A stretch of 64,000 nt of DNA from a virus, in IMG/VR virus record IMGVR_UViG_3300019889_000011. One strand, 5' to 3'. Position numbers and translations under genes: made by a program. Below, in pieces: positions 43,098 through 63,941 of the stretch. Every line of letters begins with the position of its first letter. Position 1 is the stretch's first letter. The notes below the pieces were generated by a model. That model was not told where the DNA came from, did not search any database, and saw only the letters and a list, made by a program, of their open reading frames with translations.

Positions 43098-43162
43098 AGT
43101 TTCCTTCTGTTAGGCCAGCGTTACCCCTCACCCAGATCCGAGGTAACAACGCGCTAACTGCT

Positions 43163-43203
43163 CGAAAAAGAAGAGGTCACCGACCCTTGGCTGCGGTGAC
43201 CTC
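43163..43203 (-). terminator. Rho-independent terminator just downstream of major capsid gene
   Basis: GAGGTCACCG...CGGTGACCTC 10-bp stem. On the minus strand it is followed by TTCTTTTTCG. Confidence 0.5.
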
Positions 43204-43226
43204 TGTTTGGAAGTGAAGGCAACTGG

Positions 43227-44426: not shown

Positions 44427-44469
44427 GAGGGATGTTTACCTTTCGAGAATTTGGAATTTGGATCCGCGC

Positions 44470-45495: not shown

Positions 45496-45525
45496 GACGA
45501 TTGTGTCCTCTCGCGTGTGTTTGCT

Positions 45526-49071: not shown

Positions 49072-49160
49072 GCTGATCCTTTGTAGCGCTTTGTCGCGAA
49101 TTGACTTGCAATCATGCCGGATCGGAGCGTTCCTCGTGATGGTTCCAAGGAGGAACGAAC

Positions 49161-49541
49161 ATGACCACCAAGCAGACCAAAGTCGCCACCGCCGCCAAGA
49201 AGTCCACCACCAAGAAGGCCACCACGAAGAACACGCCCAGCAAGACTGCTGCGGCCAAGCCCAAGGCCACGAAACCGGCCAGCGTTCGCGCACAGTCGCC
49301 CACCACGCCGCCCAAGGCAGCAACGGAGGGGAAACCTACCACCCCGCGCAAGGACGGCACCAAGGCTAAAGTCTTGGCGATGATCAGCCAGAAGGGTGGA
49401 GCCACCCTGCCGAAGATCATGGAAGCCACCGGCTGGCAGGCTCACAGCGTCCGTGGCCTGATGGCGACGCTGGGCAAGACGATGAAGATCGAGAGCCTGA
49501 AGAACGAGGCTGGCCAGCGCACGTATATTCATCACGCGTAG
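49161..49541 (+). CDS. Histone H1-like low-complexity protein with DUF3489-like C-terminal domain
   Basis: SD AGGAGG. K/T/A-rich N-terminus (KKSTTKKATTKNTPSKTAAAKPKATKPA), then KVLAMISQKGGATLPKIMEATGWQAHSVRGLMATLGK. Its orientation is opposite to the flanking genes. Confidence 0.5.
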   Translation: MTTKQTKVATAAKKSTTKKATTKNTPSKTAAAKPKATKPASVRAQSPTTPPKAATEGKPTTPRKDGTKAKVLAMISQKGGATLPKIMEATGWQAHSVRGLMATLGKTMKIESLKNEAGQRTYIHHA

Positions 49542-50803
49542 GTTCCAGTCTGTTCGGCAGAGGCGGCAGAGATGCCGCCTTCGCTCGTTCTGGCTGCTTT
49601 CAATTCCTCGAACGTCCTGCCGTCGCCGTCGAGCGTGGCCTGCTTGCCGGTGAAGGTCTGCCAGCGCGTGATGATGACGTCGCAGTAAGCCGGATCAATC
49701 TCCGTGGTACGGCATAGCCGCCCTTCCATCTCGCAGGCAATCAGCGTGGTTCCGGACCCGCCGAACGGGTCGAGGACCACGTCGCCGCCCTTGCTGCTGT
49801 TCGCAATTGGGTATGCCACCAGCGCAACTGGCTTCATCGTCGGGTGCTCTTGGCTTTGCGACGGTCGGTCGAAGTGCCAGAGCGTCGTCTGCTTCCGGTC
49901 CGAGTACCAGCGATGGGCTGCTGTCGCCTTCCAGCCGTACAACACAGGCTCGTGTTGCCACTGGTAGTCCGAACGTCCGAACACCATGGTCTGCTTCGCC
50001 CAGACGCAACACGCGGCCAGATAGAAGCCAGCCTCAAGGTACGCTTTGCGGAAGTTGAGACCCTCGGTATCGGCGTGGAAGATGTAGATGGATGCGCCGT
50101 CGCCCATCGCGTTGAACATGCACCGATAGGCGTTCAGCAGGAAGCCGTAGAAGTCGAGATCGTCTTTCTTGTCGTTCTCGATCTTCAGCGCCTTCTTTGT
50201 CTTGCCGGTGTAGTCGATGTTGTATGGCGGGTCCGTCACCACCAGCGCAGCCGAGCGTCCGTCCATCAGCCGGTCGACATCAGCCTGCTTCGTGGAATCG
50301 CCGCATAGCAGTCGGTGGTTGCCGAGCACCCAGAGGTCTCCAGCCTGCGTGACCGGCGTCGCGGGCACCGCTGGAACTTCGTCCGCGTCCGTGAGGCTGT
50401 CCGTAGACTTCGCCATCAACTCCGCAAGTTCGCTCTCGTCGAATCCGGTCAGGCTCATGTCCATGTCGAGCGCTCTCAGATCCAGCAGCTCCGCGCCGAG
50501 CAGAGCGGAATCCCAATCGGTCTCGTCGTGGCTTCGGTTATCCATGAGCCGGTATGCGCGAACCTGTGTCGGGTTGAGGTCGGTGGCGACGTGAACCGGC
50601 ACCGTCTCCGCGCCCATCCTCTTCGCTGCCAGCAGCCGCGCGTGACCGACGATGATAACGCCTTCGGTATCAACGACGATGGGTTGCCGCCAGCCGAACT
50701 CGCGAATGCTCGCAGCTACCTTGTCGACGGCGGCGTCGCTGATCTTTCGAGCGTTTTGCGGATACGGCGTGGGGCGGCCAATCGGCCAGGATTCAATGTT
50801 CAT
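49532..50803 (-). CDS. ParB-like nuclease domain fused to N6/N4 DNA methyltransferase
   Basis: N-terminal ParB-like region (QPIVVDTEGVIIVGHARLLAA), a central TDPPY motif, and a C-terminal AdoMet site VLDPFGGSGTT. Confidence 0.8.
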   Translation of the reverse strand: MNIESWPIGRPTPYPQNARKISDAAVDKVAASIREFGWRQPIVVDTEGVIIVGHARLLAAKRMGAETVPVHVATDLNPTQVRAYRLMDNRSHDETDWDSALLGAELLDLRALDMDMSLTGFDESELAELMAKSTDSLTDADEVPAVPATPVTQAGDLWVLGNHRLLCGDSTKQADVDRLMDGRSAALVVTDPPYNIDYTGKTKKALKIENDKKDDLDFYGFLLNAYRCMFNAMGDGASIYIFHADTEGLNFRKAYLEAGFYLAACCVWAKQTMVFGRSDYQWQHEPVLYGWKATAAHRWYSDRKQTTLWHFDRPSQSQEHPTMKPVALVAYPIANSSKGGDVVLDPFGGSGTTLIACEMEGRLCRTTEIDPAYCDVIITRWQTFTGKQATLDGDGRTFEELKAARTSEGGISAASAEQTGTYA

Positions 50804-50883
50804 GGAAAAATTCTGTAAACCTGCGAAACTTCACGGAAGAGGTGCGCGTGGTACGAAGCGCAAAGTGACAGGTATTTGATCCG

Positions 50884-50895
50884 CCCCCCTCCCCC
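50884..50895 (-). other. Conserved C-rich motif (cos/pac candidate) shared with 61080-61090
   Basis: CCCCCCTCCCC(C) lies 28 bp downstream of the HNH stop. The same motif lies between HNH2 and TerS2. Confidence 0.35.
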
Positions 50896-50922
50896 TCTGC
50901 CCTCTGGTGGCAAGGGCACGTC

Positions 50923-51390
50923 TCAGTCCAACCTGCTCCGTTTCGATTGAAGATTCGCATTCATTTCGCGCATCGTCTTGGCGCTGTGGCACTCGTTACA
51001 TCTGGTCTTGTAGTTGTCGAGGTCCAGCCGGAGGTCCGGTCTGTCTTGTATCGGTATGTCATGTTCGCCGTGGAGATGGCGTTGACCGAGGCGATAGCGG
51101 TCGCGAAGCTCTCTGAGGATGACGTCCGTTGACGGAGGGTCCAGTCCATAGAGCCGCGCGTCGCGGACGACAGACGGTTCAAAGCCGCAATCAACGCACC
51201 GCCATTCGTCGCGCTGGAAGCAAAGGATGCGCAGTCGTTGATGGTCCTCTGTGTAACCACGCTTCGATGGTGAGCCACGGTGTGAGTCATGTAGTCGTGT
51301 CTTCTTGCTTTGGCAGTCGGGACAACGCGGCCCACTCGCTGCTAGCTTGTTACAACCGGGAGTTGAACAGGACCGCTTCGGGAGCCTCAT
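50923..51390 (-). CDS. HNH endonuclease (terminase-associated)
   Basis: Cys4 zinc ribbon plus DHDIPIQDRPDL...NYKTRCNECH. Paralog of 61184-61621. Confidence 0.7.
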   Translation of the reverse strand: MRLPKRSCSTPGCNKLAASGPRCPDCQSKKTRLHDSHRGSPSKRGYTEDHQRLRILCFQRDEWRCVDCGFEPSVVRDARLYGLDPPSTDVILRELRDRYRLGQRHLHGEHDIPIQDRPDLRLDLDNYKTRCNECHSAKTMREMNANLQSKRSRLD

Positions 51391-51401
51391 ATGGTTCGGT
51401 G

Positions 51402-51683
51402 CTAACCCTTCGCTTGAATGGTGAGGTTCACGTTCTGGTAAGCGCCTGCTTTGGTGTTCCAATCGCTGAAGCCCATGTGACCATTGGCAGAGACGACCAC
51501 TGATCCATCTGGATCGAACGTATCCAGACACTGAACAATCGTTCCGTGAACCAGCCTCACCGTTTCCTTCTCACCTTCGTCCGCGAGACCAGCAGGCGCG
51601 TCTGACAAGGGATAAGAGAACTGGCGGTCAAGCTCCACCTTCACGTCTTCGATCTTGCCGCTTGCACTAACGCTCCAGCTCAT
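51402..51683 (-). CDS. Hypothetical protein
   Basis: ORF only. Confidence 0.3.
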   Translation of the reverse strand: MSWSVSASGKIEDVKVELDRQFSYPLSDAPAGLADEGEKETVRLVHGTIVQCLDTFDPDGSVVVSANGHMGFSDWNTKAGAYQNVNLTIQAKG

Positions 51684-51719
51684 AACTTCCTTCCTTCTCT
51701 CCCGCTTGGGAGGGGGTCT

Positions 51720-52061
51720 CTACTGTTCGTGCAGCTTGGACGGGTCGATGAGCTTCTGTGCGTCCGCGTCCGCGATGGCCACGTTGGTGATCATCTCGGT
51801 CAGCAGCTCAGCCCACTCGGTGAAGCGCGGGTCGATGGTCGTGTCGTTCTTCACTGCCGCAATGATGGGGAGCAGGTCTTGCAGAACGGTGACGGTCTCG
51901 TCCGATGCCGTGCCACGGTTGCGGAGGTCTTCGATGAGGCTCAGCACAGCAGGCGTCAGCCCGCTGACGAGGCTGGCGATGCTGGCGGGCACGTTGACAC
52001 CGAACGTACCGAGCAGGGCGGAGAGGAGAGTAAGTGCTAATCCGGGGAGCTGTTCAATCAT
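51720..52061 (-). CDS. Membrane protein with N-terminal TM (i-spanin candidate)
   Basis: N-terminal hydrophobic LALTLLSALLGTFGV then a helical body; adjacent to the lipoprotein and lysozyme genes. Confidence 0.3.
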   Translation of the reverse strand: MIEQLPGLALTLLSALLGTFGVNVPASIASLVSGLTPAVLSLIEDLRNRGTASDETVTVLQDLLPIIAAVKNDTTIDPRFTEWAELLTEMITNVAIADADAQKLIDPSKLHEQ

Positions 52062-52489
52062 GGCTTGACTCCAATCGTTTCAACAGGCGGGATAGGCGCA
52101 CCATCACTGAGCGCAGTGGTGTACTTCGATTGCATCGTGTCGTAGCTGCCCTTCAGAGCGTCGGCGTCGGCCTGCGTAGCAGCCGTGGCCTTGTGATAAG
52201 CGTCCCACAGACGATGTGTGGTGTTGTATGCCTGCGCGAGGCTGTCCATGCCGGTCACCATTGCGGGGGTTGGGTGGAAGCTTCCGTCCGCAACCTTGCC
52301 CTTGTAAGTTTCGAGCACGGCCTGAATGTCGCGGAGGCCGCGATATACCTGCGCGTCGAGCGCGCTAGTCTGGCCCGGGACAGGAGCGGTGACAGTCTGG
52401 TGAGTGGCGCAACCGGTCGTGCAGCCTGTCAGCAGTCCCATTGAGCCGACGACGAGTGCGATTGCGAGGATGATGCGCTTCATAATCAT
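52058..52489 (-). CDS. Lipoprotein (o-spanin candidate)
   Basis: MIMKRIILAIALVVGSMGLLTGC lipobox. Overlaps the lysozyme gene end by 4 nt. Confidence 0.4.
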   Translation of the reverse strand: MIMKRIILAIALVVGSMGLLTGCTTGCATHQTVTAPVPGQTSALDAQVYRGLRDIQAVLETYKGKVADGSFHPTPAMVTGMDSLAQAYNTTHRLWDAYHKATAATQADADALKGSYDTMQSKYTTALSDGAPIPPVETIGVKP

Positions 52490-53058
52490 GTTTGCTCCCT
52501 TGCAGTGTTGCCTGCCAAAAGAAACTGTTCCTTGGTCCACGCGTTCCGCTCCTCCGATGGACCGATACGGTGACACTCCAAGCTGGCTGCCTCCCATCGC
52601 TGGAGTTTGACCAGCTGACAGAACTTCGGGAAGTTCAGCCGCAGCTTCGTAACGCCGAGATTGAAACACATATCAATCAATGCGATCTTGGCCGGGGCCG
52701 GGTAATCGTGGAAGTCTGGGAAGAGCGACGCGAGGTCACTCACGCATTCCGACATCGTCTTCCGCAGGGCTTCGTCGATATCTTCATCCGCGAGCAGGAG
52801 TGAATCTGAACGCCGGTATGCCTTGGCGCTGTATCCCGGCGTCATCTGCTGGACGCGGGTGAACTCGGCGATGATCTCAGCATCGTCCGCGAACTCGGCG
52901 TTGGGACGACGGAAGCGATAGTCGAGCGCAGCTTCTGCGTTCGGGATCATCTCGCCGACGCCAACCGTTACCGTTGCCTGCTTGTTCGTGTCGAGATACA
53001 TCCAATGAATGCGGCCTTCAAAACTGGCGGTGGCTGCGACCGCATCATCGAGATACAT
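52486..53058 (-). CDS. Endolysin, T4-type lysozyme (GH24-like)
   Basis: SFEGRIHWMYLDTNKQATVTVGVGE parallels T4L [21 protein letters not shown] (catalytic Glu). ALIDMCFNLG...LQRWEAA parallels T4L ALINMVFQMG...QQKRWDEAA. Confidence 0.75.
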   Translation of the reverse strand: MYLDDAVAATASFEGRIHWMYLDTNKQATVTVGVGEMIPNAEAALDYRFRRPNAEFADDAEIIAEFTRVQQMTPGYSAKAYRRSDSLLLADEDIDEALRKTMSECVSDLASLFPDFHDYPAPAKIALIDMCFNLGVTKLRLNFPKFCQLVKLQRWEAASLECHRIGPSEERNAWTKEQFLLAGNTAREQT

Positions 53059-53062
53059 GGTT

Positions 53063-53470
53063 TTATTTGCCGTCCGTTGGTACGGGTGCGTCGCCTTGTC
53101 GGCGGTCCGTTGTCGCTTGCCTGCGGTCCTGCGTTGCTACACGCCTGTCCAGCATTCCTTGCAGATAACCGGCTGGCGGCGGTGCGATTAGCGCGCGATA
53201 CGCTGTGGTCTGGAACGCCCACTGCTCCACCCCACGCACAAGCGCGTGGTAGATGTTGACTGAAGTGAGGCCGCTGATGGTGAGCGTGCCCTGGCTCCAC
53301 GTCACAAAGATGCCGACGCCTGTCAGGAACGCGATGATGGCAGAAACCCAATAGTTGAGCGTCTCGGTCTCGACAGTAAGCCAAGGGAAGAATCGGCTCT
53401 TTTTCAGCCATTGCATGACGAAGCTGACGAGGATCGCCGTTGTCGCTTGTGCGCCTAGTTCGCTGCTCAT
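53063..53470 (-). CDS. Holin candidate
   Basis: Two to three TM helices (TTAILVSFVMQWL, WVSAIIAFLTGVGIFVTW) and a charged C-terminus, directly upstream of the lysozyme. Confidence 0.45.
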   Translation of the reverse strand: MSSELGAQATTAILVSFVMQWLKKSRFFPWLTVETETLNYWVSAIIAFLTGVGIFVTWSQGTLTISGLTSVNIYHALVRGVEQWAFQTTAYRALIAPPPAGYLQGMLDRRVATQDRRQATTDRRQGDAPVPTDGK

Positions 53471-53543
53471 TTGGAGTGGGGAGGGTGGTTGCAGTGAAAC
53501 TGGACCGGGCAGCCATGCAAAGGTCGCCCGGTCCGATCCGGGA

Positions 53544-53753
53544 CTAGAGAGGGCTGGTCTCCGTGTTGGCGGTGACCGCAGCTGCCAAGCTGTCCGAAGA
53601 TATCTTCAGCTGTTCAGAAAGGGCGGTGACTTCTGCGGCGGTGGGGCTGTCCGCAAGCTTCGCGGCGATGCCCTGAATGAGGGTGATAGCGGAAACCTCA
53701 ACCGAGGTGCTGGCTGCTACCTGTGCTTCGAGAGCGTCAAATTCTGTCGACAT
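53544..53753 (-). CDS. Small hypothetical protein
   Basis: ORF only. Confidence 0.3.
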   Translation of the reverse strand: MSTEFDALEAQVAASTSVEVSAITLIQGIAAKLADSPTAAEVTALSEQLKISSDSLAAAVTANTETSPL

Positions 53754-53773
53754 TTGGAGTTGTCTCCTGCGGG

Positions 53774-53986
53774 TTAGAGTTGCGTTGATGATTGGCCCTG
53801 CGCAATGACCTCACGCAACGACGTTTCTGATCTCTTCAATCGCGCTGTGAGCTGAGCAAGCTGTTCAGCGTCAACGGATCTCTGTGCAAGCAGTTCGATG
53901 ATGTGATCCAGCTTCGATACGACGGCGTGAAACTGTTCGCGGTCCAGCCCGATAGTGACATTGATTGAAGACTCCAAAGAAGCCAT
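53774..53986 (-). CDS. Small hypothetical protein
   Basis: ORF only. Confidence 0.3.
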   Translation of the reverse strand: MASLESSINVTIGLDREQFHAVVSKLDHIIELLAQRSVDAEQLAQLTARLKRSETSLREVIAQGQSSTQL

Positions 53987-54382
53987 TTATCCCCTTCTGT
54001 GTTGCCGGTGGGAAGACTTGTGACGCTTCAGACGTCGGCACGCAACCCGAGGCGCCTTCATGTCGCCAATCGTCGGCCAGATGCGGACTCGACGACGCGC
54101 CCACAGGATCTCGGAGACACAATCTGCGACTCCTGCGTTGGCGCGGCTATTGGCCGCTGTGAGGCTCGACTGGTCAAACTCCAGCCGAGCAAACACTTCA
54201 GAGGTTTCATGCTTCTGCTGGTCCCGATCGATCAGCCGGAAGGTGTGAGTGCTGGCCTTGATCGCGGAGAGTCGCTCCACAAGCCCGCGTTCGATGTAGC
54301 CGTCCATCTCCGCATAGGTCAGGTGTGCGATCACTTCGTTGTCTCGGTCCAGCAGCACCGCGCGCTTTGCCATGTGGTTCAT
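53987..54382 (-). CDS. First gene of late/leftward operon; basic C-terminal tail (regulator candidate)
   Basis: SD AAAAAGGAAA before the ATG. K/R/H-rich C-terminus. It faces the switch region. Confidence 0.4.
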   Translation of the reverse strand: MNHMAKRAVLLDRDNEVIAHLTYAEMDGYIERGLVERLSAIKASTHTFRLIDRDQQKHETSEVFARLEFDQSSLTAANSRANAGVADCVSEILWARRRVRIWPTIGDMKAPRVACRRLKRHKSSHRQHRRG

Positions 54383-54610
54383 TTTCCTTTTTAGGGTCAG
54401 CGAGGCCCATTGCTCTCGTCACCCGTGTCGCCGATGAGTGCAGCCTGTGGAAATTGCTGCGCGGTATTGACGTTCCCTCTTGACACTCACTCACAACGCC
54501 TAGCGATATGTTCAAGTAGATGCACTATACATCGCGCAAGTCGGAGATAACAACAAGTTACAAATCAAGCTATTTGCACCCAGCGAGTAGGCGTGTTAGT
54601 TTCTTCGAAT

Positions 54611-54637
54611 CCCCGCGAATGACGCGGGGTTTGTTTG
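54611..54637 (+). promoter_or_regulatory. Perfect palindrome CCCCGCG-AATGA-CGCGGGG + TTTGTTTG (terminator-like hairpin or operator)
   Basis: 7-bp inverted repeat with 5-nt spacer followed by a T-run on the plus strand. It lies in the divergent switch region with no plus-strand gene upstream. Confidence 0.4.
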
Positions 54638-54649
54638 TAAGTGCTCGAC

Positions 54650-54750
54650 CTGAGAAGCATTGGAACTATTAGTAAGTATTAGAAGTATTTGTAAGTATGA
54701 GAACGATAAGAACCATAAGAAATATAAGAAGCATTAGAGAGATTAGACAG
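54650..54750. repeat. AT-rich operator/iteron-like repeat array in switch region
   Basis: Repeated GTAAGTAT (x2), ATAAGAA (x3) and AGAAGCATT (x2) units. An ATAAGAAGCATT-type motif also occurs at 24419 and 26200. Confidence 0.45.
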
Positions 54751-54766
54751 AAAAGGAGTGGTCATC

Positions 54767-55213
54767 GTGGGAGCATCGACTGCCGTAATCGACCTGAGCC
54801 GAGTTCCATCGTCCGAGTTGGCGCGGGAGATGAGCCGCCGTTCGCTGCCCGGCCTTGCCGCTCGACGCGTCCTGAAGCCCTGCCAGTTCTGCAAACTGCC
54901 GTTCGGCGTGCGTGACATGCGCAAGCATCTCCACGTGTGCACGTTCAACCCGAACCGGTATGGCGAGCGCGGTGTCCGCGTTTCGAAGCCCTGCCGGTAT
55001 TGCTCCGAACCCATCGCCCGAGGCGAGCGCCGAACCCATACGCGGAACTGCGTTCAGAATCCGAACAAACAATATGCGCCTTGCAACTACTGCGGTGAGC
55101 CCATCGCCAGCGGAACACGACGCGAACACAAGGTCAGGTGCGCGAGCAATCCACGCAACCAGCCAAAGAAGACAGGGGTAAGGAACCGTGGACAGCGAGA
55201 CAATCACGCCTAG
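54767..55213 (+). CDS. C2HC zinc-finger protein (three repeats)
   Basis: CQFCKLPFGVRDMRKHLHVC, CRYCSEPIARGERRTHTRNC, CNYCGEPIASGTRREHKVRC. SD AAGGAG 8 nt before GTG 54767. Confidence 0.5.
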   Translation: MGASTAVIDLSRVPSSELAREMSRRSLPGLAARRVLKPCQFCKLPFGVRDMRKHLHVCTFNPNRYGERGVRVSKPCRYCSEPIARGERRTHTRNCVQNPNKQYAPCNYCGEPIASGTRREHKVRCASNPRNQPKKTGVRNRGQRDNHA

Positions 55214-56327
55214 TGGAGCAGGATCGAACCTTCAGATCATGGGTGAGGCCAACATTGCCAGCAGCGCAGCACGCGTGCAGGCCGAGACCGCCGCGTCGAT
55301 CACCGTGGCACAACGCTTCAAGCGCAGCGAGTCGCAGGTACGGCAAGACCTGTTGAATGCGGTGAAGGCATCGCCCCGGCTCGCGGAGAAGGCGGCATAC
55401 AGCTACCCGCGCGGCAAGCGGCAAGACCCGGTGACGAAGGAGTGGGTCGAGAACATCATCAGCGGCCCGTCAACCTACATTGCACGCGAGGCAGCGCGCG
55501 TGTGGGGGAATCTGGTCTATGGCACAGAGGTCATCCGCGAAGCCGATCACGAGCGGCAGATTCGCTCCTTCGCATGGGACATGCAAACCAACATGCGCTG
55601 TCTGGCTGAGGCGACCTTCAAGAAGCTGGTCCAGCGCAGCCGATGGGTGAAGAAACCCGGTGCCAAGGATGAGAAGGTCACCGAGTGGGTGGAGCCCGAT
55701 GAACGCGACCTGCGCGAGCTGAGCAACAAGTACGCTTCGATTGGTGAGCGCAACTGCATCCTGAAGATCGTGCCGTCGCACCTGATCGATGAAGTGCTGG
55801 AGACCGCGAAGCAGACGACTCGCGAGGATGCCGCCAAGCACCCCGAAGCGGTGAGAGCGAAGCTGGCCGATGCATTCCAGTCTGTCGGCATCTCCGTCGC
55901 ACAGATCGAAGAGTATCTCCGCCATCCCCTCAACCAGACGACGCCCGATGAGATGGCTGACCTGCGCGGCATCTTCACGTCGCTGCGCGAAGGGAACTCC
56001 GTCTGGGACGACTATCGGCACACAATGCTGCCGTCTGACGACGAGGTTGCGGAGATGCCGCAACTGCGTGAGCTGGCTAAGCGGCTCAAGTGGAATGAGG
56101 CCAAGCTCGCCAACGAGATCGGGCGCAACATCGATGACATCCCGAAGCTCCTCTCATTCATGAATGAGCAGGTAGCGAAGGTGAAGGCAACTCAACCCGC
56201 GTCATCGCCGGTCGAGTCATCGCCGCGATCTGACCACGCGGAGAAGCCGGAGCCAGAGGTCATCCCGCCAACGAACGCACAGCGCCGTCCTCGCCAGTCC
56301 GCGCCACCGCCTGCACGCGATTTCTAA
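55188..56327 (+). CDS. Hypothetical early protein (379 aa), Pro-rich C-terminus
   Basis: ORF, possibly with a GTG start. A role as a recombination or replication accessory protein is only a guess from position. Confidence 0.45.
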   Translation: MDSETITPSGAGSNLQIMGEANIASSAARVQAETAASITVAQRFKRSESQVRQDLLNAVKASPRLAEKAAYSYPRGKRQDPVTKEWVENIISGPSTYIAREAARVWGNLVYGTEVIREADHERQIRSFAWDMQTNMRCLAEATFKKLVQRSRWVKKPGAKDEKVTEWVEPDERDLRELSNKYASIGERNCILKIVPSHLIDEVLETAKQTTREDAAKHPEAVRAKLADAFQSVGISVAQIEEYLRHPLNQTTPDEMADLRGIFTSLREGNSVWDDYRHTMLPSDDEVAEMPQLRELAKRLKWNEAKLANEIGRNIDDIPKLLSFMNEQVAKVKATQPASSPVESSPRSDHAEKPEPEVIPPTNAQRRPRQSAPPPARDF

Positions 56328-56391
56328 ATACCTCCACGAAGATCCGACGAACTCAGGGCCAAGCGATGTCGGCCCGGAAAGGGCATGAACA

Positions 56392-56985
56392 GTGAAAACC
56401 GATGTCGTAGAGGAGATGAAACTGAAGTGGCCTGACGGTTGCGAGCGCACACGCATTCAGGATCGTAAGCCGCAAGGCTCATGGAAGTTTGGCACGGCTA
56501 AATATCGCGACGGTCTGGTTGCCGAACTTAGCCGCATGGGTGCAACCGCCATACTCATCTGCCGCGCTGAGAATGAGCGTCTGGACCCCGGCATCGCGGT
56601 GTGGTTCTCCTTGAAAAAGGAAGACTCTTCGTGGCAGCAGGGGTTGGGGATTGAGACTCCAGCGCCGACCCTCGATGAGATCGACGCGGCATTCCGATCC
56701 AAAGCTGCACGATGCCATCCCGACCGTTCCGATGGAGGGGATTCGGAACTCTTCAAACGTCTCAACGATTGGCGGAAGCAAGCAAAAGCGTGGGTGATGG
56801 GTACCCACGACCAGCGCCATGAATATGTGATGGCAATCGACCAGTACACCGAAGCGCGGCTCAATCTATGCGCGCTCAAACTTGCCTTCTCCTACATTCG
56901 CGGCCTTGAGCGAGTCGGTGCTCCGGCGATCCTCACCCAGACCCTCGGAGCGTTTCGAGCGAAGCTGACGGGAGGATCACAATGA
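56392..56985 (+). CDS. J-domain (DnaJ-like) protein
   Basis: LDEIDAAFRSKAARCHPDRSDGGDSELFKRLNDWRKQA contains the HPD tripeptide in the correct helix II-III context. Confidence 0.5.
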   Translation: MKTDVVEEMKLKWPDGCERTRIQDRKPQGSWKFGTAKYRDGLVAELSRMGATAILICRAENERLDPGIAVWFSLKKEDSSWQQGLGIETPAPTLDEIDAAFRSKAARCHPDRSDGGDSELFKRLNDWRKQAKAWVMGTHDQRHEYVMAIDQYTEARLNLCALKLAFSYIRGLERVGAPAILTQTLGAFRAKLTGGSQ

Positions 56986-57272
56986 TGACCCCGCAGCAGA
57001 GAGCAGCAAAGACTCGTGCGTTCAACCGTGCTGGGCAGAAGTTGTACGAAGAGGTATCAAAGCCTGCGCACGAGAAGGTTGAGCAAATTCTCAATCGACT
57101 CCTCTCAGCGGAGGACATCAGGCTACGGTATGTGGGCCCTTGGAGACTCAAGGGAGGGGTTACAGAAGCACGCCTGATGTCCATCGGATTCGGAGGTCTT
57201 CAATTTACCGTGCACGTCGACGGATACAGGACATTGAAAACATACGCTTCAAGCTTTTGGGAGGTGATCTGA
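56982..57272 (+). CDS. Hypothetical protein
   Basis: ORF only. Confidence 0.35.
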   Translation: MMTPQQRAAKTRAFNRAGQKLYEEVSKPAHEKVEQILNRLLSAEDIRLRYVGPWRLKGGVTEARLMSIGFGGLQFTVHVDGYRTLKTYASSFWEVI

Positions 57273-57739
57273 TGGGTCTATCAATTCTTAGTGCGCCTCA
57301 CGACCCCCGCCAGCAGATTGAGTCTTTGCAGCGGGAACTCAACGCGCGCAATCGCGAGCTTTCCGAATTGCAGGAACAGCTTCGCCAAGAGCAGCAGAAG
57401 ACGGCTTCCGTTGAACGGGGAGTCAGTCAACTGCGCGAAATTCTTGGGCCACTCTACGGCGGCCTAAGGATGGTGTTCGGAGAGATCGATTCGATGGGTG
57501 TCGCTGAGTCGGGGCCTACAACAAAGAACTCAGCAGCATGGGAGCAGTGGAAGACGCGCCTCGGAGGTGCAACGGCGCGCGCAATCGATGCCCTCATGGT
57601 GCACGGAGAGATGAATCAAACGCAGTTACGCATCATCCTCGGATGCGCGACCCGAACCGTGACCAACGTCGTCGCCGCACTCAACCAAGCAAAGTTGATT
57701 GACAAAAGAGACGGCAAAATTCGCCTCAAGGAACTCTAG
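57272..57739 (+). CDS. Coiled-coil protein with C-terminal winged-HTH
   Basis: HGEMNQTQLRIILGCATRTVTNVVAALNQAKLIDKRDGKIRL is wHTH-like (MarR-like). Confidence 0.45.
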   Translation: MGLSILSAPHDPRQQIESLQRELNARNRELSELQEQLRQEQQKTASVERGVSQLREILGPLYGGLRMVFGEIDSMGVAESGPTTKNSAAWEQWKTRLGGATARAIDALMVHGEMNQTQLRIILGCATRTVTNVVAALNQAKLIDKRDGKIRLKEL

Positions 57740-57744
57740 AAAGG

Positions 57745-58140
57745 TTGTTTGACCGCGTGAATGCAATGAACCTCGGCCTCGTGAAGTATGACGCAATGAT
57801 CCTCGCTATCGAAGCGTGCGAACGCATCGATGAAGTGAAAAGCATCATCGATAAGGCGCGTGCCCTCGAGGTCTATGCTGCGCAGGCCATGAATACGGAG
57901 GCAGAAGCCAAGGCGGCGCGTATACGTATCCGTGCCGAGCGGAAGACGGGTGAGTTGATTGCAGAGGGACAGCGCAGCGGTCAAATGCAAACTGCTGGAG
58001 ATAACGCTGGCGCACATCGAGGAAAACAAAGGTCGTCGTGTGGCACGACTACCTTACGCGACTTCGGTATATCACGCGACCAATCCTCGCAGTGGCAGAA
58101 GCTCGCAGAGATACCGAAGGACGATGGCAGGCAAGCCAGA
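57745..58140 (+). pseudogene. Truncated 5' fragment of the methyltransferase gene (copy of the gene running off the window start)
   Basis: 57956-58128 is near-identical to 1-172 (perfect for about 127 nt), then diverges into unrelated sequence. The downstream MT-A70 domain is absent. Confidence 0.5.
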
Positions 58141-58144
58141 GAGG

Positions 58145-58894
58145 TCAGCCGACGACGAGGGACCGCAACTCCTTCGAGAATTGTTGGAGTGCCTTCAGGT
58201 CCTCGGCGTCCTTCATCGCCTTTACGCTGCCTTCACAGTTGGCATCGACGCAATCGGGATTCGAGCAGTTCGCGCAATCGCCGTCGGTGCACTCGGGACA
58301 ATCGCACTCGCACAGCGCGTCCTTTTTGAGCAGAGCTTTCAAGCTGAGGTCGATGGCGCGGAGCTGGTCGAGATCGGCGGCGGTCACTTCCCCAGGTCGA
58401 AAGGTTCGGAGGACGTTTTCAATCTGGCCAAGTGTCTTTACCGTGGTGACGACGGCCCCCGGATTACAAGGCACGGCGCAAAGTGAGATCTCATGCAAGC
58501 GAACTTCCTTCAGTGTTCGAGTGCCGTCATCGTTGTATGAGATTTTGCCTTCGCCGTGTGGCAACGTGTAGCCGATGGATAACCCCCGAACGATTCCAGC
58601 TTTCATAAAAGCGTGCGCACGTTTAGCCCCTGCATCTTCCATGAGCAACGTCCCTTTGCAGACAAGGCCCTCGGTCGAGTCGGAGAGAAAAACGCTTCCG
58701 AGTGGTTCCAGTTGTGAGTGACACCAGAGCAAGGGAAGGCCCTTCCCCTGCATCTGAATCGCCTGTTTATATGCGCCCGGTGCGATGATGTCGCCCACGA
58801 GGTCAGCGGGTGCACCGTACGTCGAAGCCAGTCCGGTGAAGGTGCCCGAATCATCGAGCACCTTCACCTTCAGAGAGAAGTCACGCGTCTGCAT
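58145..58894 (-). CDS. Prohead protease (HK97 family), second copy, with Cys-rich C-terminus
   Basis: GLSIGY...LHEISLCAVPCNPGA protease motifs. C-terminal CECDCPECTDGDCANCSNPDCVDANC. Confidence 0.65.
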   Translation of the reverse strand: MQTRDFSLKVKVLDDSGTFTGLASTYGAPADLVGDIIAPGAYKQAIQMQGKGLPLLWCHSQLEPLGSVFLSDSTEGLVCKGTLLMEDAGAKRAHAFMKAGIVRGLSIGYTLPHGEGKISYNDDGTRTLKEVRLHEISLCAVPCNPGAVVTTVKTLGQIENVLRTFRPGEVTAADLDQLRAIDLSLKALLKKDALCECDCPECTDGDCANCSNPDCVDANCEGSVKAMKDAEDLKALQQFSKELRSLVVG

Positions 58895-58906
58895 TGGTTC
58901 CCCCGT

Positions 58907-60091
58907 TTACGCTGGCGACGATGTGAAGGTGCCTGTGAGGAACGACGCGGCTCTTTTGACCACCAAACACATGCGTTTCTCTGCGCGGCACGCTACGAGG
59001 TTCTTCGTAAAGTAATCTGCGTGCTCGGTGCTCACTTCATATTGAATTTCCATTCTGTCGCGAATCTCTGCCGCTGCCGGGTTGCCGCTGCCGACTAGAA
59101 AAGTTCCGGCGCTGATGCTGGTCGTCGGAATAACGAGCAGGTCGAACAGCATCGCGTTGGCCGTGGTCTGTGGGTCTCCGATCAAAAAACGGCCCAAGGT
59201 ATCCTTCGTCAACCGGATGTTCCACCAGTCGTTCGGGTTCAACACGATGAAGCTGGGAGTTAGTTCCTTGGCCGAGGTCAATTGCTGGACAGCACGACCG
59301 ACGATATCGATGCGGCTATAGCTGCCGGAACCTAGCAGCGACGGGTTGAATGGAGTGGCCTGCCCGAGGATGCCGTGGAGATTTTCTCCGGTGTTATCGC
59401 CGCCGAGAATTTGCTGTTCTTCGGCAAGATTTACATAAAACGTGAGGCTGGTTTCGAGGAAACTGGCGAGTTCCTCGAAGTCATCAAGAATATTTTTAGA
59501 GGCCGGAATCCAAGTCGCAATCGTCTTCACCCGCTCACTCGCAGAGGTGAACGCGAGCGCGTTCTCTGCCTTCGCCGCACCTTCCACTTGTGGCGATGCA
59601 ATCCCCAGAGGCGTACTCACGCGCACAAAATCGACCATGCCCATTGAGGTCGGTCGAGCTGTCAGCGCATCGCGCACGGTCAACTCTTGTCGAGGTTCGG
59701 CGGTGATGCCCCGGTCGCGATCGATCGGCAATACTCCGGTGGTCTGCGAGCCTTGCCCGGTCGACGTGATGACCGCTTTGCGCTGGAGGATCTGTTCGGC
59801 ATCCTTGCCGCTGAGCGTGATGATGGCGCTGCCGCGGCGGTCGTGAAGGAGACGCTGGAAGCCTTCGTGAGTCTTCAAATGTTCGACGAATCCAGGCGTC
59901 ATCGAGACGTTGCCGAGGCGGTCGTGATTTTGCAAATCCAAAGAATCGACCTGCGTTTGAATCGCCTTCTGCTGCGAAACGAGCGATTCGACGGACGATT
60001 TGATGCCGTCGAGGACTTCGACCACTGCTTTAGTTTCCATGGGGAGACAACTCCGTTGAACGGCTGGGATTTCGTCGGTGCTGGTCGGCAA
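58907..60091 (-). CDS. Major capsid protein, HK97 fold, second (paralogous) copy
   Basis: Collinear with 43227-44426 (shared blocks GDNTGENL, LNPNDWWNIR, TKDTLGR, AAAEIRDRME, EHADYFTKNLVA). Confidence 0.8.
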   Translation of the reverse strand: MPTSTDEIPAVQRSCLPMETKAVVEVLDGIKSSVESLVSQQKAIQTQVDSLDLQNHDRLGNVSMTPGFVEHLKTHEGFQRLLHDRRGSAIITLSGKDAEQILQRKAVITSTGQGSQTTGVLPIDRDRGITAEPRQELTVRDALTARPTSMGMVDFVRVSTPLGIASPQVEGAAKAENALAFTSASERVKTIATWIPASKNILDDFEELASFLETSLTFYVNLAEEQQILGGDNTGENLHGILGQATPFNPSLLGSGSYSRIDIVGRAVQQLTSAKELTPSFIVLNPNDWWNIRLTKDTLGRFLIGDPQTTANAMLFDLLVIPTTSISAGTFLVGSGNPAAAEIRDRMEIQYEVSTEHADYFTKNLVACRAEKRMCLVVKRAASFLTGTFTSSPA

Positions 60092-60093
60092 CC

Positions 60094-60315
60094 TTACGAG
60101 TCGAGCGAGTCAACTACGCCATGCGAACCCGGTGCGGGGTGCCTATGCCGTGTACTGGCTGTAGGCGACGCTGGAGTGTCATCTCGATTATCACTCATAT
60201 CGGCTTCCGGTGATTGCATGATGGCGTCGATTTTGACGATGGCCTGAACATCGACGCCGAGAGCGGCGGCCCGTCGCTTCAGTCGATTCCATCGCAGGAT
60301 GCGAACGCGATTCAT
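60094..60315 (-). CDS. Small hypothetical protein
   Basis: ORF only. Confidence 0.3.
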   Translation of the reverse strand: MNRVRILRWNRLKRRAAALGVDVQAIVKIDAIMQSPEADMSDNRDDTPASPTASTRHRHPAPGSHGVVDSLDS

Positions 60316-60554
60316 TGAACGATTCCCCCCGTCACCAGGCGAAGTTTCAAGTCTTCAATCTCCACCTGATGGCTCTCCATCAGCCGGGTCTGCAACGCGA
60401 CTTGCGTTTCGAGCTGGTCAATCCTTGCGGTCGCCTGTTCGTTCGCTACGACAAGCTGGTTGTGAGCAAGCTGCAGCGTCACAATTTCACGAATCACCTT
60501 GTCGAGGTCGTCATCGTTTTGCATGTTGCCTCCATTCTTTCGTTTCAAATTCAA
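60312..60554 (-). CDS. Small coiled-coil hypothetical protein
   Basis: ORF only. Confidence 0.3.
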   Translation of the reverse strand: MNLKRKNGGNMQNDDDLDKVIREIVTLQLAHNQLVVANEQATARIDQLETQVALQTRLMESHQVEIEDLKLRLVTGGIVQ

Positions 60555-60557
60555 ATT

Positions 60558-61058
60558 TCAATCGCCGCACAGCGCTCTCTCCAGCGGGTCGTCCATGCTG
60601 CCCGGAACGAAGGCACCCGTCGTCGTCGCGATCCGCGACCTTGAGGCAGGCGTCATGCCGAATTGCTGTAGCATCCGACTCACGATCTCGGCCTGCGCAT
60701 TGATGATTCCCAAGAGCGGTGACTGCATCAGGTAGCCGGTTTTCGTCTGCAACAAGAGCGTCGAGCGATTGCCTTTCGCCGATCTCACCATCAGGCTCTG
60801 AGCCTCAATCAAGGTTCCATACGCCTGACAAAGAATCGCCAGCGCTACCCCATCCGCTTCGCTCAGCACCCGCATCGAGAGCAGGAGTGGAACCAATCTT
60901 CTCCATTCCTTGCGAGCTATGGCGGTCAGGTGTTTCGGCATCTCTGGTGCTCCAATCAGTGGCGTCGGCTCGCGGTCATTCAACTTCTGGTGACCGCGAT
61001 TACCTTCGTAAATCCGCAGTGCAGTTGGTTTCGGTGGTGGTCCCGGCATGATATTCAC
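60558..61058 (-). CDS. terS: Terminase small subunit, P27 family, second copy
   Basis: MNIMPGPPPKPTALRIYEGNRGHQKLNDREP matches the P27 N-terminal signature. Confidence 0.7.
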   Translation of the reverse strand: MNIMPGPPPKPTALRIYEGNRGHQKLNDREPTPLIGAPEMPKHLTAIARKEWRRLVPLLLSMRVLSEADGVALAILCQAYGTLIEAQSLMVRSAKGNRSTLLLQTKTGYLMQSPLLGIINAQAEIVSRMLQQFGMTPASRSRIATTTGAFVPGSMDDPLERALCGD

Positions 61059-61079
61059 CTCAGCTACAGTCTGCGCCTA

Positions 61080-61090
61080 CCCCCCTCCCC
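61080..61090 (-). other. Conserved C-rich motif (cos/pac candidate), second copy
   Basis: CCCCCCTCCCC between HNH2 and TerS2. Confidence 0.35.
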
Positions 61091-61183
61091 TTATCCCTAG
61101 AAAATTCGCGGATAACGTGCACGTGTTCCGTAGAGCGATTGCTGTGGAGATCTAGACGGCCCTACACGTCATCCCTGCCTGTC

Positions 61184-61621
61184 TCATGCCTGCGGGAGCC
61201 GTGCGTTCAGTTCGCGCATCGTCTTGGCGCTGTGACACCGGCTGCATCGCGTCCGGTAGTTGTCGAGGTCGCGACGGAGGTCGGGCCGTTCCTCTACCGG
61301 CACGTCGTGGTCGCCGTGCAGATGCACATCTCCGCGTGTCCATCGTTCTTTCAACTCGGCAAGGATGACGCTGGTGGGTGGTTCATCGAGACCATAAGTT
61401 CTGGCATCGCGCACGACGTCCGGCTCGAAGCCGCAGTCGACGCAGCGCCATCCGTCGCGCTGAAAGCACTGAATGCGGAGCCGTTGATGAGTGGCGTCGT
61501 ATCCTTGCGCGTACGACGAGCCGCGCCGTTGACTCTGCTGCCGCTTGCATTCAGGGCAGCGCCCACCACCCTCGGTCAGCCTGCCACAGCCGTTCGAGCA
61601 GGAGCGCTTTGGAAGCCTCAT
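61184..61621 (-). CDS. HNH endonuclease (terminase-associated), second copy
   Basis: Same architecture and about half identity to 50923-51390 (CVDCGFEP, VVRDAR, YGLD, DNY.TRC..CHSAKTMRE). Confidence 0.7.
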   Translation of the reverse strand: MRLPKRSCSNGCGRLTEGGGRCPECKRQQSQRRGSSYAQGYDATHQRLRIQCFQRDGWRCVDCGFEPDVVRDARTYGLDEPPTSVILAELKERWTRGDVHLHGDHDVPVEERPDLRRDLDNYRTRCSRCHSAKTMRELNARLPQA

Positions 61622-61918
61622 ACGTTTCCTCCTTCGCAGTCATCGTTGATTCCCTTCGACCGCTCTCTACGATGGCCCGTAGTCGCGCGGAATGTCTCCT
61701 TCCTGCGTTCGCTACGATGCCTCTGGCGGGTCACTGTATCCACGTTGCACGCTCGCCGCGTCGCTGACGTCGGTACTCGGCGAACTTCCGTTCGAGTTCG
61801 TCGTTTGTGTACAACGCCCGGTAGTAGCTCCACGAGCGCATCAGCTCTGTTGCTTCACGTGACGGTAGCTTGGCGGCGGCATCTGCGACTCTTTGCTCAA
61901 TGGGGATGTGCGCTTTTT

Positions 61919-62278
61919 CTATTTGCATGCTTCCTCACTTTCATCGTCCTGTGCATTGGTCTTTTTAGCAGTACTGAGCATCGTTGTCGCATACTCGAAA
62001 GCCTGCGAGCGGTACGGTGCCCATGGAAGGATGCCCACCGAGTTCAGCATCTTCTCAATCGTGAACGGCGTGCCGCTTGCGACGGCAGTCTCTACGGCAC
62101 GCTCCACGAGCGCCTGCCAGAGCTTCTTTCGGCGGTCGTTACTCTGTGCGGTCTGTGCTTTCACTGCTGCATCATCTTCATCGAATGTAATCACGCAACA
62201 CCTCCGTGACGGATTGCGCCTGAAGCTGGTAGAGCAGACAGCCAGATGGCAAGCGCTGTACGCTGATCTGCCCTGCAC
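61919..62278 (-). CDS. Hypothetical protein (frame choice uncertain)
   Basis: Several overlapping ORFs here; this one has the most plausible composition. Confidence 0.25.
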   Translation of the reverse strand: MQGRSAYSACHLAVCSTSFRRNPSRRCCVITFDEDDAAVKAQTAQSNDRRKKLWQALVERAVETAVASGTPFTIEKMLNSVGILPWAPYRSQAFEYATTMLSTAKKTNAQDDESEEACK

Positions 62279-62495
62279 GGCGTCGCTGCTGTCTCTTCAT
62301 CGCTGCCTGCTTCGTTCTCTTCTCCTCGGCCAGCACCTCGGCCAGGTATGCAGGTGGGTAGTACTCGCGTGGGCTTTTCATATTTGAGGTTCCTCTCCTG
62401 TTGAACGGTGGATTCAGCTTTTAGAAACATCATCGCGATACGTCCCCAGAGCCGAAGGGCTGTGGGGCATGGAGTTACGGTTTGTTTTATTTCTT

Positions 62496-62568
62496 CCTTG
62501 ATAACCCTTGAGGATCATTGATAAATACCTTGAAAATACCCTTGATCCCGCATCGTCACCTTGATACC
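62496..62568. repeat. Iteron-like array of (C/A)(C/T)TTGA(T/A) repeats at helical-turn spacing
   Basis: CCTTGA/CATTGA copies at 62496, 62506, 62517, 62528, 62540 and 62559 in an AT-richer stretch just downstream of the 461-aa gene. Confidence 0.45.
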
Positions 62569-63941
62569 GCATCGCTGTTCCTATCCCGTTCAGCCAATTG
62601 GTCATAATCTTGTATCCATTCCGTCGCAACTTCCTCCATCTGCCGGAGCCAGCGCGCCGTCGCTTCGGTATGCGGACGGTACCGCAGGCGGTAAATATCC
62701 ACCATTTGCACTTGCGGCACAGTCTGCAAAACCGGGACCAGCACATTTTCATCCTCCGCCCCGTGATCGAGAATGATTTCGGCCAGCATTCGGCGAGCGG
62801 CGGCATTGGCCGCTACCGCAACGGCCCGCTCGAGCGGCTCGCCACCGCCATGCCACGCGATGCCAATGATGGGTTCGCTGCCTCTGTCCTCGTTCTCCAC
62901 AAGATGCGGGACGCGCTCGAGCAGGCCCATTTTGCTCAGAGTGTCAAACGCCTGCCAGAGACCGGTTTCCTTCGATTGATCAACCGATTGACGTTGCCAG
63001 AAGAATTCAGTGCATGCCTGACCGGGATAAACATAGGCACTGAGTAGATTGAAACCATAAACGAAACGGTTGCCGCAGTGGCCGTATTGTCTCCGTCGGT
63101 ATTGCACCTCCACTACCTTCCGACTTATACCTCCGTCATCCGCGAGGTTGTGCGCGTGGTACAGGTCGATGAGAAGCCGGAGAGCATCGAGGTTACGACA
63201 TTGACGCAGCCGCTTCACGGGTGATGGTTCACCATTATCCGTTCCGGTGACCAACGTATTTGGGAGCCAGATTAGATCGCTTCCAGCTTCGAGCCTCGGC
63301 GGTTCGACCTGAAAGGTGGTTCCGTTCTGCCAGAGCAATCCACGCATGACCAACTGTTTCGCCTCTTGCCTTGGGGATTTGGATCCCCTACCTTTTCGCC
63401 GGAAGGTGTTCATCACATATCGCTCGATATCGGAAATGCGCCGCCGGGCAGCATCGAGTACAGCATCGAAAGGTTGCAGTTCATAGACTGGTCGCCGCAT
63501 CGCCGTCGACTGAGCGACAGAGAGGAAGCCAGCTTCGATAAGTTGAGCAATCGCTGGCTTAGCCCGCTTCCAGGCGAGTCCGGTGTAATTCTGAATAGCA
63601 ACGGCGGACCACCTCGAAATGCGATTGCCTTTGCCGGTTCCTGCGCAGATGGTCAGATAGGCAACGGCCATGTTGATATCGTCCAATCCGCAGAGCAACT
63701 TCCATGTCCTTCGGTCTACGGTGAAGAAGCCAGCGCCGCGTGTTATCGTTGTTTCGCCCATGACATAAAACCTTGGCTCTACCGGCTTTGTCCCCGGCGG
63801 AGCTTTTCTATGCCTTGCATCGCGCTGCCGTAGCACGTTTGGCGCGCTCTTCCCGCTTGAGGGCTTTGGGGAGCGGCGCGGCAGGGATCGCAGGCGGGGT
63901 GGTGCTACGGGCTTCAACCCAGCTATCGACCTCGTGCTCAA
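62556..63941 (-). CDS. Large hypothetical protein (461 aa), replication-initiator candidate
   Basis: No motif I can name. Candidate status rests only on the adjacent iteron-like array. Confidence 0.35.
   Translation of the reverse strand: MSTRSIAGLKPVAPPRLRSLPRRSPKPSSGKSAPNVLRQRDARHRKAPPGTKPVEPRFYVMGETTITRGAGFFTVDRRTWKLLCGLDDINMAVAYLTICAGTGKGNRISRWSAVAIQNYTGLAWKRAKPAIAQLIEAGFLSVAQSTAMRRPVYELQPFDAVLDAARRRISDIERYVMNTFRRKGRGSKSPRQEAKQLVMRGLLWQNGTTFQVEPPRLEAGSDLIWLPNTLVTGTDNGEPSPVKRLRQCRNLDALRLLIDLYHAHNLADDGGISRKVVEVQYRRRQYGHCGNRFVYGFNLLSAYVYPGQACTEFFWQRQSVDQSKETGLWQAFDTLSKMGLLERVPHLVENEDRGSEPIIGIAWHGGGEPLERAVAVAANAAARRMLAEIILDHGAEDENVLVPVLQTVPQVQMVDIYRLRYRPHTEATARWLRQMEEVATEWIQDYDQLAERDRNSDAVSR

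Follow-up and report, generated by a model that had tools for sequence, protein, structure and literature searches.

Classical phage-inducible chromosomal islands (PICIs) share a core of integrase, regulator, primase-replicase, capsid-morphogenesis gene and small terminase (TerS), and carry no portal, connector or tail genes (PMC10085698). Capsid-forming PICIs, or cf-PICIs, carry genes for capsid, protease, portal, connectors, TerS, large terminase (TerL) and an HNH endonuclease (PMC10690885), and TerL together with the head-tail adaptor/connector is what separates them from PICIs (PMC10085698). Portal-less 'mini' HK97 entities have been described on circular contigs 5-12 kb long; they have an HK97-fold capsid gene together with integrase/excisionase and Rep-like genes, but neither portal nor tail (bioRxiv 10.1101/2025.06.18.659913). 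Acidobacteriota were not among the satellite hosts in one survey (PMC10085698). We have studied a 64,000-nt stretch of viral DNA from IMG/VR record IMGVR_UViG_3300019889_000011 (the window, to whose full length all positions refer unless a contig is named). Comparison of its sequence with other assemblies and genomes leaves us with considerable confidence that it holds a complete circular phage, here called P, and a separate 9.6-kb satellite, here called Q, and that the contig walks from one to the other through a segment that both share. Judged by its predicted genes, Q appears to be a PICI-like satellite intermediate between classical PICIs and cf-PICIs.

Q is a separate integrative phage satellite of about 9,606 bp that extends from 58083 to the end of the window and about 3.5 kb beyond. 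Independent contigs of both elements (L001, L002, L003, L008 and L009) were found by exact-protein look-ups. Contig L008 (9,613 bp), from the NCBI metagenome-assembled genome (MAG) GCA_035316445.1, named Edaphobacter sp., is 100% identical to window 57942-64000, and L009 (6,010 bp, from the same sample as the P contig L002) is 100% identical to 57942-63951. Both terminate 203 bp beyond the protease gene, and the far end of L008 comes back to the 5' fragment of a methyltransferase gene. Beyond the window, L008 carries the rest of the AlpA gene, a 495-bp spacer, a P4-type integrase (domains Arm-DNA-bind_3, Phage_int_M and Phage_integrase) and genes of 177 aa and 155 aa.

The genes of Q that follow lie within the window on the minus strand. 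The prohead serine protease (249 aa; 58145..58894; Peptidase_S78, E 2.7e-19) is adjoined by an HK97-type major capsid protein of 377 aa as called (58907..60040, with the open reading frame (ORF) extending to 60091; Phage_capsid, E 1e-32). No record of a 394-aa version of the capsid protein was found; gene callers choose the later start, which gives 377 aa. Directly upstream of the capsid gene lies a conserved 73-aa protein (60094..60315) with same-position homologues in L012, L094, L095, L098, L110 and L122, followed by a 70-aa ORF (60312..60524) called in L008 and L009; neither has a Pfam, PHROG or PADLOC match. Next come TerS (163-166 aa; 60558..61049, or to 61058; Terminase_4, E 3.3e-20) and an HNH endonuclease (145 aa; 61184..61621; PF01844, E 1.2e-5). 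Three small ORFs of 65, 91 and 67 aa (61731..62381) were called in L008 and L009 and have homologues in related elements, all three without a family match, and PADLOC returned nothing for the unassigned ORFs of Q. A 401-aa protein of several winged-helix domains (62556..63761) and an AlpA-family regulator/excisionase cut by the window end (63808..64000; Phage_AlpA, E 3e-15; full gene at L008 3466-3747) complete this part of the element. A protein identical to the Q protease is encoded on the separate contigs L008 and L009. Its C-terminus is cysteine-rich (CECDCPECTDGDCANCSNPDCVDANC) and may bind metal; the longer protease of P (341 aa) is without such a stretch. Roughly 120 N-terminal residues of the Q capsid protein fall outside the Pfam match, and our guess is that they form an HK97-style delta domain.

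The sequence-only reading had described this second head set as paralogous to the set of P, and Pfam and BLASTP agree: the Q proteins are 54% (capsid), 41% (protease, over the 156 aa of the catalytic domain), 32% (TerS) and 64% (HNH) identical to those of P. Its remark that portal and TerL are missing from this set holds for all ORFs of Q. Across the complete 9.6-kb element, Pfam and PHROG revealed no genes for portal, TerL, head-tail connector, tail or lysis; phmmer with P's TerL found no TerL, and P's portal and TerL used as comparison had no match in Q. The integrase and the 401-aa winged-helix protein are the only products longer than 400 aa. A portal and TerL just beyond the window are ruled out by L008, which continues with the attachment site (attP) discussed below, the integrase and two small genes only. 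Since Q encodes neither, it must obtain portal and TerL from a phage. The earlier suggestion of a satellite-like cassette dependent on a phage for both is well supported by the comparative evidence. The gene order HNH-TerS-x-x-capsid-protease, with nothing more, is not the TerS-TerL-portal-protease-capsid plus tail order of HK97-like prophages, and the placement of capsid before protease, already noted as unusual, is real and conserved in relatives.

When compared with described satellites, Q shares features with several of them. Like Q, cf-PICIs (e.g. EcCIEDL933) are integrative islands with an integrase, AlpA, their own HK97-type capsid, prohead protease, TerS and HNH, and no tail or lysis genes, which makes them dependent on a helper phage (PMC10690885, PMC10085698). 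Unlike Q, they encode TerL, portal and head-tail adaptor/connector; portal and adaptor/connector are also absent from the relatives of Q. In addition, Q at 9.6 kb is the smaller element, its capsid gene precedes that of the protease, and its host belongs to Acidobacteriota. Classical PICIs (Staphylococcus aureus pathogenicity islands (SaPIs), EcCICFT073 type) resemble Q in their size of about 10 kb, terminal integrase, AlpA-type regulator and fixed-site integration, and in having a TerS that redirects packaging without portal, connector, tail or lysis genes. Of the features that define PICIs, Q has an integrase with a fixed attachment site (P4-type integrase and attP, with relatives lying between tRNA 3'-end repeats), AlpA in the place beside the integrase that an AlpA/Stl/MerR-type regulator takes, and a Terminase_4 TerS with no other structural match in Pfam or PHROG. 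However, described PICIs reshape or redirect helper capsid proteins and Q encodes a complete capsid protein and protease itself, and classical PICIs have a primase-replicase, of which no domain was found in Q. P4 shares with Q the P4-type integrase (Arm-DNA-bind_3 and Phage_int_M), a tRNA-like attP, an AlpA-family protein, a size of about 10 kb and probable cos packaging by a helper terminase. P4 builds small heads from the P2 capsid protein via Sid and has a primase-helicase; it is without capsid, protease, TerS and HNH genes (summarized in PMC10690885). The 'mini' HK97 entities are defined by encapsulin-like capsids and have no terminase or packaging genes (bioRxiv 10.1101/2025.06.18.659913), whereas Q has protease, TerS, HNH and a standard Phage_capsid protein that is close to those of phages.

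The other element of the window, P (1..57955), is a complete circular genome of 57,955 bp and a candidate helper. Contig L001 (ERZ27267804, 16 kb) reads from window 51525-57955 straight into 1-9575, L003 (Logan SRR7026477) reads from 55517-57955 straight into 1-3407, and L002 (ERZ27268041) is a 57,962-bp MEGAHIT contig that begins 13 nt before window position 1. Because position 57955 runs into position 1 and L002 has this length, the genome of P is circular, or permuted to the same effect, and measures 57,955 bp. P encodes an integrase (24764-26086), a tape measure (33756-36974), tail fibre proteins and a full head module and is therefore a complete temperate, siphovirus-like phage. The head/packaging module, identified by Pfam (43227..51531, minus strand), has the gene order of phage-type relatives and consists of HNH (50923-51531), a ParB-N6/N4 methylase between HNH and TerS (49532-50803), TerS (48559-49323), TerL (46878-48566), portal (45526-46878), protease (44470-45495) and capsid (43227-44426). 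The MT-A70 methyltransferase gene of P (353 aa; PF05063; plus strand) is formed by 57745..57955 joined to 1..851 and is called across this join in L001 and L003, with its MT-A70 domain found in 30-851. The sequence-only reading took this phage to be truncated in that gene; once the circle is closed, the gene is intact. P thus has two DNA methyltransferases, this one at the circle junction and the ParB_N-N6_N4 methylase of the head module, and it has three HNH genes (4313-4906, 9289-9807 and 50923-51531).

A repeat search of the window gave a single long repeat, 1-169 against 57956-58124, at 96% identity. Positions 1-127 equal 57956-58082 base for base, mismatch begins at offset 128, 33 of the following 40 nt match, and similarity is then gone. 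The repeat had been noted from the sequence and is borne out; it had been read as a recombination junction that truncates the phage, and marks instead the circular wrap-around of P plus a segment shared with Q. It is curtailed by the window start, and comparison of L008 with the window extends the exact identity of P and Q to 275 nt. We call this segment S' (57808..58082). Differences between P and Q end at 57807 and resume at 58083, and the window carries the P version to the left of S' and the Q version to the right. S' is the graph node where the contig crosses from P into Q.

The total extent of this phage-derived patch in Q is 57683..58128, with 118 of 125 positions matching to the left of S' and 33 of 40 to the right; L008 1-265 is 97.4% identical to window 57948..57683. 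A second P-like patch of 200 nt (L008 264-463) resembles window 56327-56128 at 89.5% and corresponds to the 3' end of P's 362-aa gene. The counterparts of the two patches lie 1.36 kb apart in P, and P-like DNA in Q totals about 0.65 kb. At 5-10% divergence, the chance of a 275-nt run free of mismatches is below 1e-6. The segment is therefore a recent conversion tract inside diverged flanks; it marks recent recombination between P and Q and means that both recently occupied one cell. When JGI metagenome contigs were scanned with a 60-mer taken from S', none matched.

On the plus strand, an ORF begins at 57745 whose first ~128 residues also occur in the product of the gene interrupted by the start of the window. 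The ORF had been described as a stump at 57745-58140; in fact it continues past 58140 as far as 58329, where it overlaps the end of the protease gene in antisense, and the fragment belongs to Q rather than to a broken P. The methyltransferase 5' fragment in Q is a patch of phage-derived DNA. Its N-terminal domain (methyltransferase residues ~68-150) is also found in accessory genes of the related satellites L110 (65%) and L101 (39%), and the fragment may be functional rather than junk.

The behavior of assemblies at S' explains how P and Q came to stand on one contig. In a graph with k=141, unitigs are expected to end at 58082-140 = 57942 (= -13) and at 57808+140 = 57948, and these predictions match L002, L008 and L009, including the lengths of 57,955+7 and 9,606+7. 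In a k=127 graph the P unitig is expected to start at 127-126 = 1, which coincides with position 1 of the window. Contig ends of three assemblies thus fall at k=127 or k=141 breakpoints of the shared segment, and every available assembly breaks or branches at the 275-bp exact repeat. De Bruijn assemblers end at this segment or pass on through it, and what is seen there suits a route through the assembly graph no less well than a genuine fusion. The window covers the first 64 kb of a path that leads through P, the shared segment and Q in a figure-of-eight graph. Two circles with a repeat in common would produce such a graph, and so, equally, would a single cointegrate in which the repeat occurs twice. 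We think it probable that P and Q are separate circles and that the join is an assembler's path through the shared repeat.

If the contig is correct as written, homologous recombination at the 275-bp segment would have joined P and Q into a cointegrate of about 67.6 kb. Fusion might be promoted by the recombination genes of P; a PD-(D/E)XK nuclease, an SbcC-like ATPase and a PHROG-3657 protein are products of its early region. The satellite may then travel or replicate inside the phage genome. Exact identity over 275 bp is ample for recombination, and satellites embedded in helper prophages are known (PMC10111431). The longest record with Q's proteins is 67,536 bp, which is near P plus Q. However, a walk through the figure-of-eight graph would yield the same contig: by our own arithmetic, the path of P, shared segment and Q computes to about 67,540 bp if it ends at the first 127-mer of the shared segment. 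Further, P self-closes across the segment in two other datasets (L001 and L003), and the MEGAHIT assembly leaves P whole but breaks Q at 63951, a difference that speaks against equal depth. At 117% of the P genome, 67.6 kb is also probably more than a cos phage can package. We therefore regard a cointegrate as possible and rather unlikely. Inferring cointegrates from the asymmetric break of Logan contig L006 was dropped, since local graph bubbles explain that break equally well.

Within the spacer that separates integrase and alpA in L008, a 23-nt stretch, TTCGAATCCCTGTCTCTCCGCCA, copies the 3' end of a tRNA and is similar to the tRNA-Ser of Edaphobacter aggregans. The heptamer TACCTAC flanks it, three copies on one side and two on the other, and was not found elsewhere in L008 or in the 64-kb window. 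There is no full tRNA. The tRNA-like sequence and the TACCTAC repeats are arranged as in an attP with arm sites. The int-attP-alpA junction is unbroken in L008 and L010, and because the attP layout with arm sites lies between int and alpA, both represent the circular, excised form of Q. The second head module, which had been taken for part of a mosaic or defective third phage, lies instead in a discrete 9.6-kb integrative element with its own attP.

The attachment region of Q bears on whether Q is a satellite embedded in its helper, inserted by its integrase in P's methyltransferase gene with the repeat as attachment site. Helper-embedded PICIs do exist and, like Q in the contig, are contiguous with the presumed helper; they are inserted by integrase in a late gene of the helper (PMC10111431). 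The repeat does sit at the boundary of P and Q. In contrast, P and Q meet at a homologous segment of 275 bp that lies in an early gene, and the repeat, by its length of 275-446 bp and its graded identity, resembles homologous DNA rather than an attachment core. The attP of Q lies elsewhere, between int and alpA, and mimics a tRNA 3' end with arm-type repeats; relatives integrate at tRNA genes; and both L008 and L010 have an uninterrupted int-attP-alpA junction, which means that Q was excised. We consider embedding of this kind extremely unlikely.

To place Q among its relatives, we rely on a capsid alignment scan that used one genome per species and returned 28 loci. These fall into two layouts: a phage-type order of TerS-TerL-portal-protease-capsid, and a satellite-type order of capsid-protease with no portal or TerL within 10 kb. 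Carriers of the satellite type include Tunturiibacter gelidiferens X5P2, Granulicella sp. S190, Acidobacteriaceae KBS 96 and KBS 89, and E. aggregans DSM 19364, together with several MAGs and a remnant in Terriglobus albidus. Four elements lie between a tRNA gene and a second copy of its last 25 nt and measure 9.5 kb (tRNA-Asn), 10.2 kb (tRNA-Glu), 9.3 kb (tRNA-Lys) and 9.8 kb (tRNA-Ser); they come from Granulicella sp. S190, KBS 96, E. aggregans DSM 19364 and one MAG. In the T. gelidiferens copy a Q-like integrase adjoins tRNA-Val. All five have capsid then protease and are without portal and TerL. Other genes of the relatives encode helix-turn-helix (HTH) excisionase-like and HTH_36/DnaD-like proteins, an MmeI-type restriction-modification enzyme, a Phd antitoxin and integrase. 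A chromosomal metagenome contig, L012, carries int, HTH, a 404-aa homologue of the 401-aa protein, capsid and protease, with no attachment repeats found, and the circular relative L201 (9,566 bp) has RepA_C and toxin-antitoxin genes and no integrase. Defense-type cargo was observed in related satellites downstream of the protease or near the integrase; it comprises the MmeI-type enzyme (968 aa; L095 7536-10442) and, at L101 8816-9241 and L201 1909-2540, a Phd antitoxin and a PIN/Phd pair.

These relatives are relevant to the remaining part of the sequence-only reading, that a phage truncated in its methyltransferase gene is fused to a mosaic or defective third phage that lost portal and TerL. 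The window taken alone does show a gene fragment followed by an incomplete head module. However, the methyltransferase gene is whole on the closed circle, and the second module is part of a 9.6-kb element with integrase, AlpA and attP. The size, the layout and the lack of portal and TerL are conserved in attachment-site-bounded copies in several genomes and in a circular contig, which random decay would not give. A truncated and decayed phage is thus highly improbable.

Searches of IMG/VR gave mostly phages. The Q capsid as a single query found no matches there, and the capsid alignment (A2) returned almost exclusively true phages. Capsid precedes protease in only two of 79 IMG/VR relatives (L122 and L142) and not in the other 77; those remaining relatives with the upstream region on the contig have phage order. 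Homologues of the Q capsid at 60-86% identity are mostly on contigs of at most 6.5-12 kb. Of the two IMG/VR relatives with capsid before protease, L122 (IMGVR_UViG_3300036802_000310, 16 kb) has two capsid-protease pairs in opposite orientation (1-1600 and 9971-11890) and could be two head-to-head satellites or an inverted assembly artifact. In Xanthobacter sp. DSM 24535 (L112), a full TerS-TerL-portal-protease-capsid set (638-6166) is followed about 3 kb on by a second protease-capsid pair (8982-10867). In two alphaproteobacterial loci (L116 and L118), where neither portal nor TerL was detected, a protease-capsid pair has an integrase upstream, and in L118 also AlpA. Satellites of a similar kind, with a capsid gene, may thus occur outside Acidobacteriota.

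The 401-aa winged-helix protein weakly resembles iteron-binding initiators and is possibly a replication initiator or regulator. It has 90 homologues at 80 loci. Only the closest, in L012, also has capsid and protease, and the protein was rejected as a marker of Q-type satellites for this reason; no capsid gene was detected in the 80 loci of its homologues numbered L014-L093, and the contexts L011 and L013 added nothing further. Homologues are common in soil and peat metagenomes, with an integrase adjacent where flanks were examined (L013 and L065). We conclude that it is an uncharacterized core protein of integrative elements.

Besides the shared tract, several observations link P with Q. The two were found together in ERZ27268041 and SRR7026474, and both are excised in the same samples. 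Their HNH and capsid proteins are, as noted, 64% and 54% identical. Downstream of HNH, P (50804-50922) and Q (61059..61183, minus strand, the intergenic region between HNH and TerS) have a similar non-coding block, which recurs in the phage and satellite of KBS 96. In three of the four pairs compared, none of 2000 shuffles reached the observed score, and for Q against L096 ten of 2000 did. This block is a candidate cohesive-end (cos) site. The G-run GGGGAGGGGGG occurs only at 50884-50894 and 61080-61090, downstream of both HNH genes; it was set aside as a basis for the cos assignment because the copies are not in homologous alignment columns. Scaffold KB906767.1 of KBS 96 carries both a phage-type prophage (HNH-TerS-TerL-portal-protease-capsid) and a satellite-type element (L096 and L104), which share a similar non-coding block directly upstream of TerS and are a possible helper-satellite pair. 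P is a candidate for the helper of Q.

Based upon these comparisons, we propose that induction of a helper such as P would lead Q to excise, through its integrase and AlpA, and to replicate. The capsid protein and protease of Q would then build Q-specific, presumably smaller, proheads around the helper portal; a 9.6-kb genome would suit a small shell (cf. P4 and SaPI heads). TerS and HNH of Q, together with helper TerL, would recognize a cos site akin to that of the helper, where Q DNA would be cut and packaged, and helper connectors and tails would complete the particle. More broadly, Q and its relatives may constitute an undescribed family of portal-less, shell-forming Acidobacteriota satellites between PICIs and cf-PICIs, with P as natural helper and with both exchanging DNA by homologous recombination, a proposal to which we give an even chance. 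Such satellites would supply the HK97 shell and its maturation protease, and some of them TerS and HNH as well, and would need to fit portal, TerL, connectors and tail of the helper.

Several points weigh against this interpretation. The contig may be a real P-Q cointegrate. A single study is probably the source of the samples in which P and Q occur together, so that this co-occurrence is weak evidence. The cos assignment depends on a modest sequence similarity of the wider block and is weakly held. No primase, replicase or helicase domain was found in Q, where the 401-aa winged-helix protein occupies that position. Many relatives are without a recognizable TerS or HNH. Finally, a neighbor-joining tree of capsids does not split satellite-type from phage-type capsids, and the satellite type is not one clade; because the tree has no separate satellite clade, we claim no single origin or donor lineage for the satellite module.

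Some of these points would also fit a mobile Q that is not a satellite of P, and instead depends on another helper or is a portal-less 'mini' HK97 or plasmid-like entity that uses its shell otherwise and in which the P-like patch is a scar. Reports from metagenomes include small integrase-bearing HK97 elements that have no portal, tail or terminase (bioRxiv 10.1101/2025.06.18.659913), L201 is without an integrase and has a plasmid RepA_C, and TerS and HNH are missing from many relatives. However, Q keeps both TerS and HNH, which are meaningful only with TerL and portal supplied in trans. In addition, the exact 275-bp tract puts P and Q recently in one cell, their HNH proteins are 64% identical with a shared block downstream, and both elements are excised in the same samples. 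Overall, we find it improbable that Q is something other than a satellite of P.

Further features of P were observed outside the region of contact. A full-length homologue of ribosomal protein S10 (10761-11078, plus strand; PF00338, E 7e-34) is adjoined by a Band_7/SPFH protein (11816-12634). A 49-nt direct repeat, 73% identical, lies directly upstream of the P integrase (26172-26220) and at the start of the early region (54696-54744) and may be a regulatory or arm-type site.

In conclusion, the repeat in this contig is mostly an assembly effect, in which a circle was read past its start and a shared segment was then walked, and it should not be annotated as a truncated prophage. What it exposes is a candidate helper-satellite pair from Acidobacteriota, abundant soil bacteria, and a satellite type that is testable and probably undescribed. 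Cultured carriers of such elements are E. aggregans DSM 19364, Granulicella sp. S190, T. gelidiferens X5P2 and KBS 96. With their MmeI-type restriction and toxin-antitoxin cargo, related elements may move defense genes among soil bacteria. If the proposal is true, the satellite shell must assemble on a foreign portal, which bears on the evolution of capsid-forming satellites from, or into, simpler ones.

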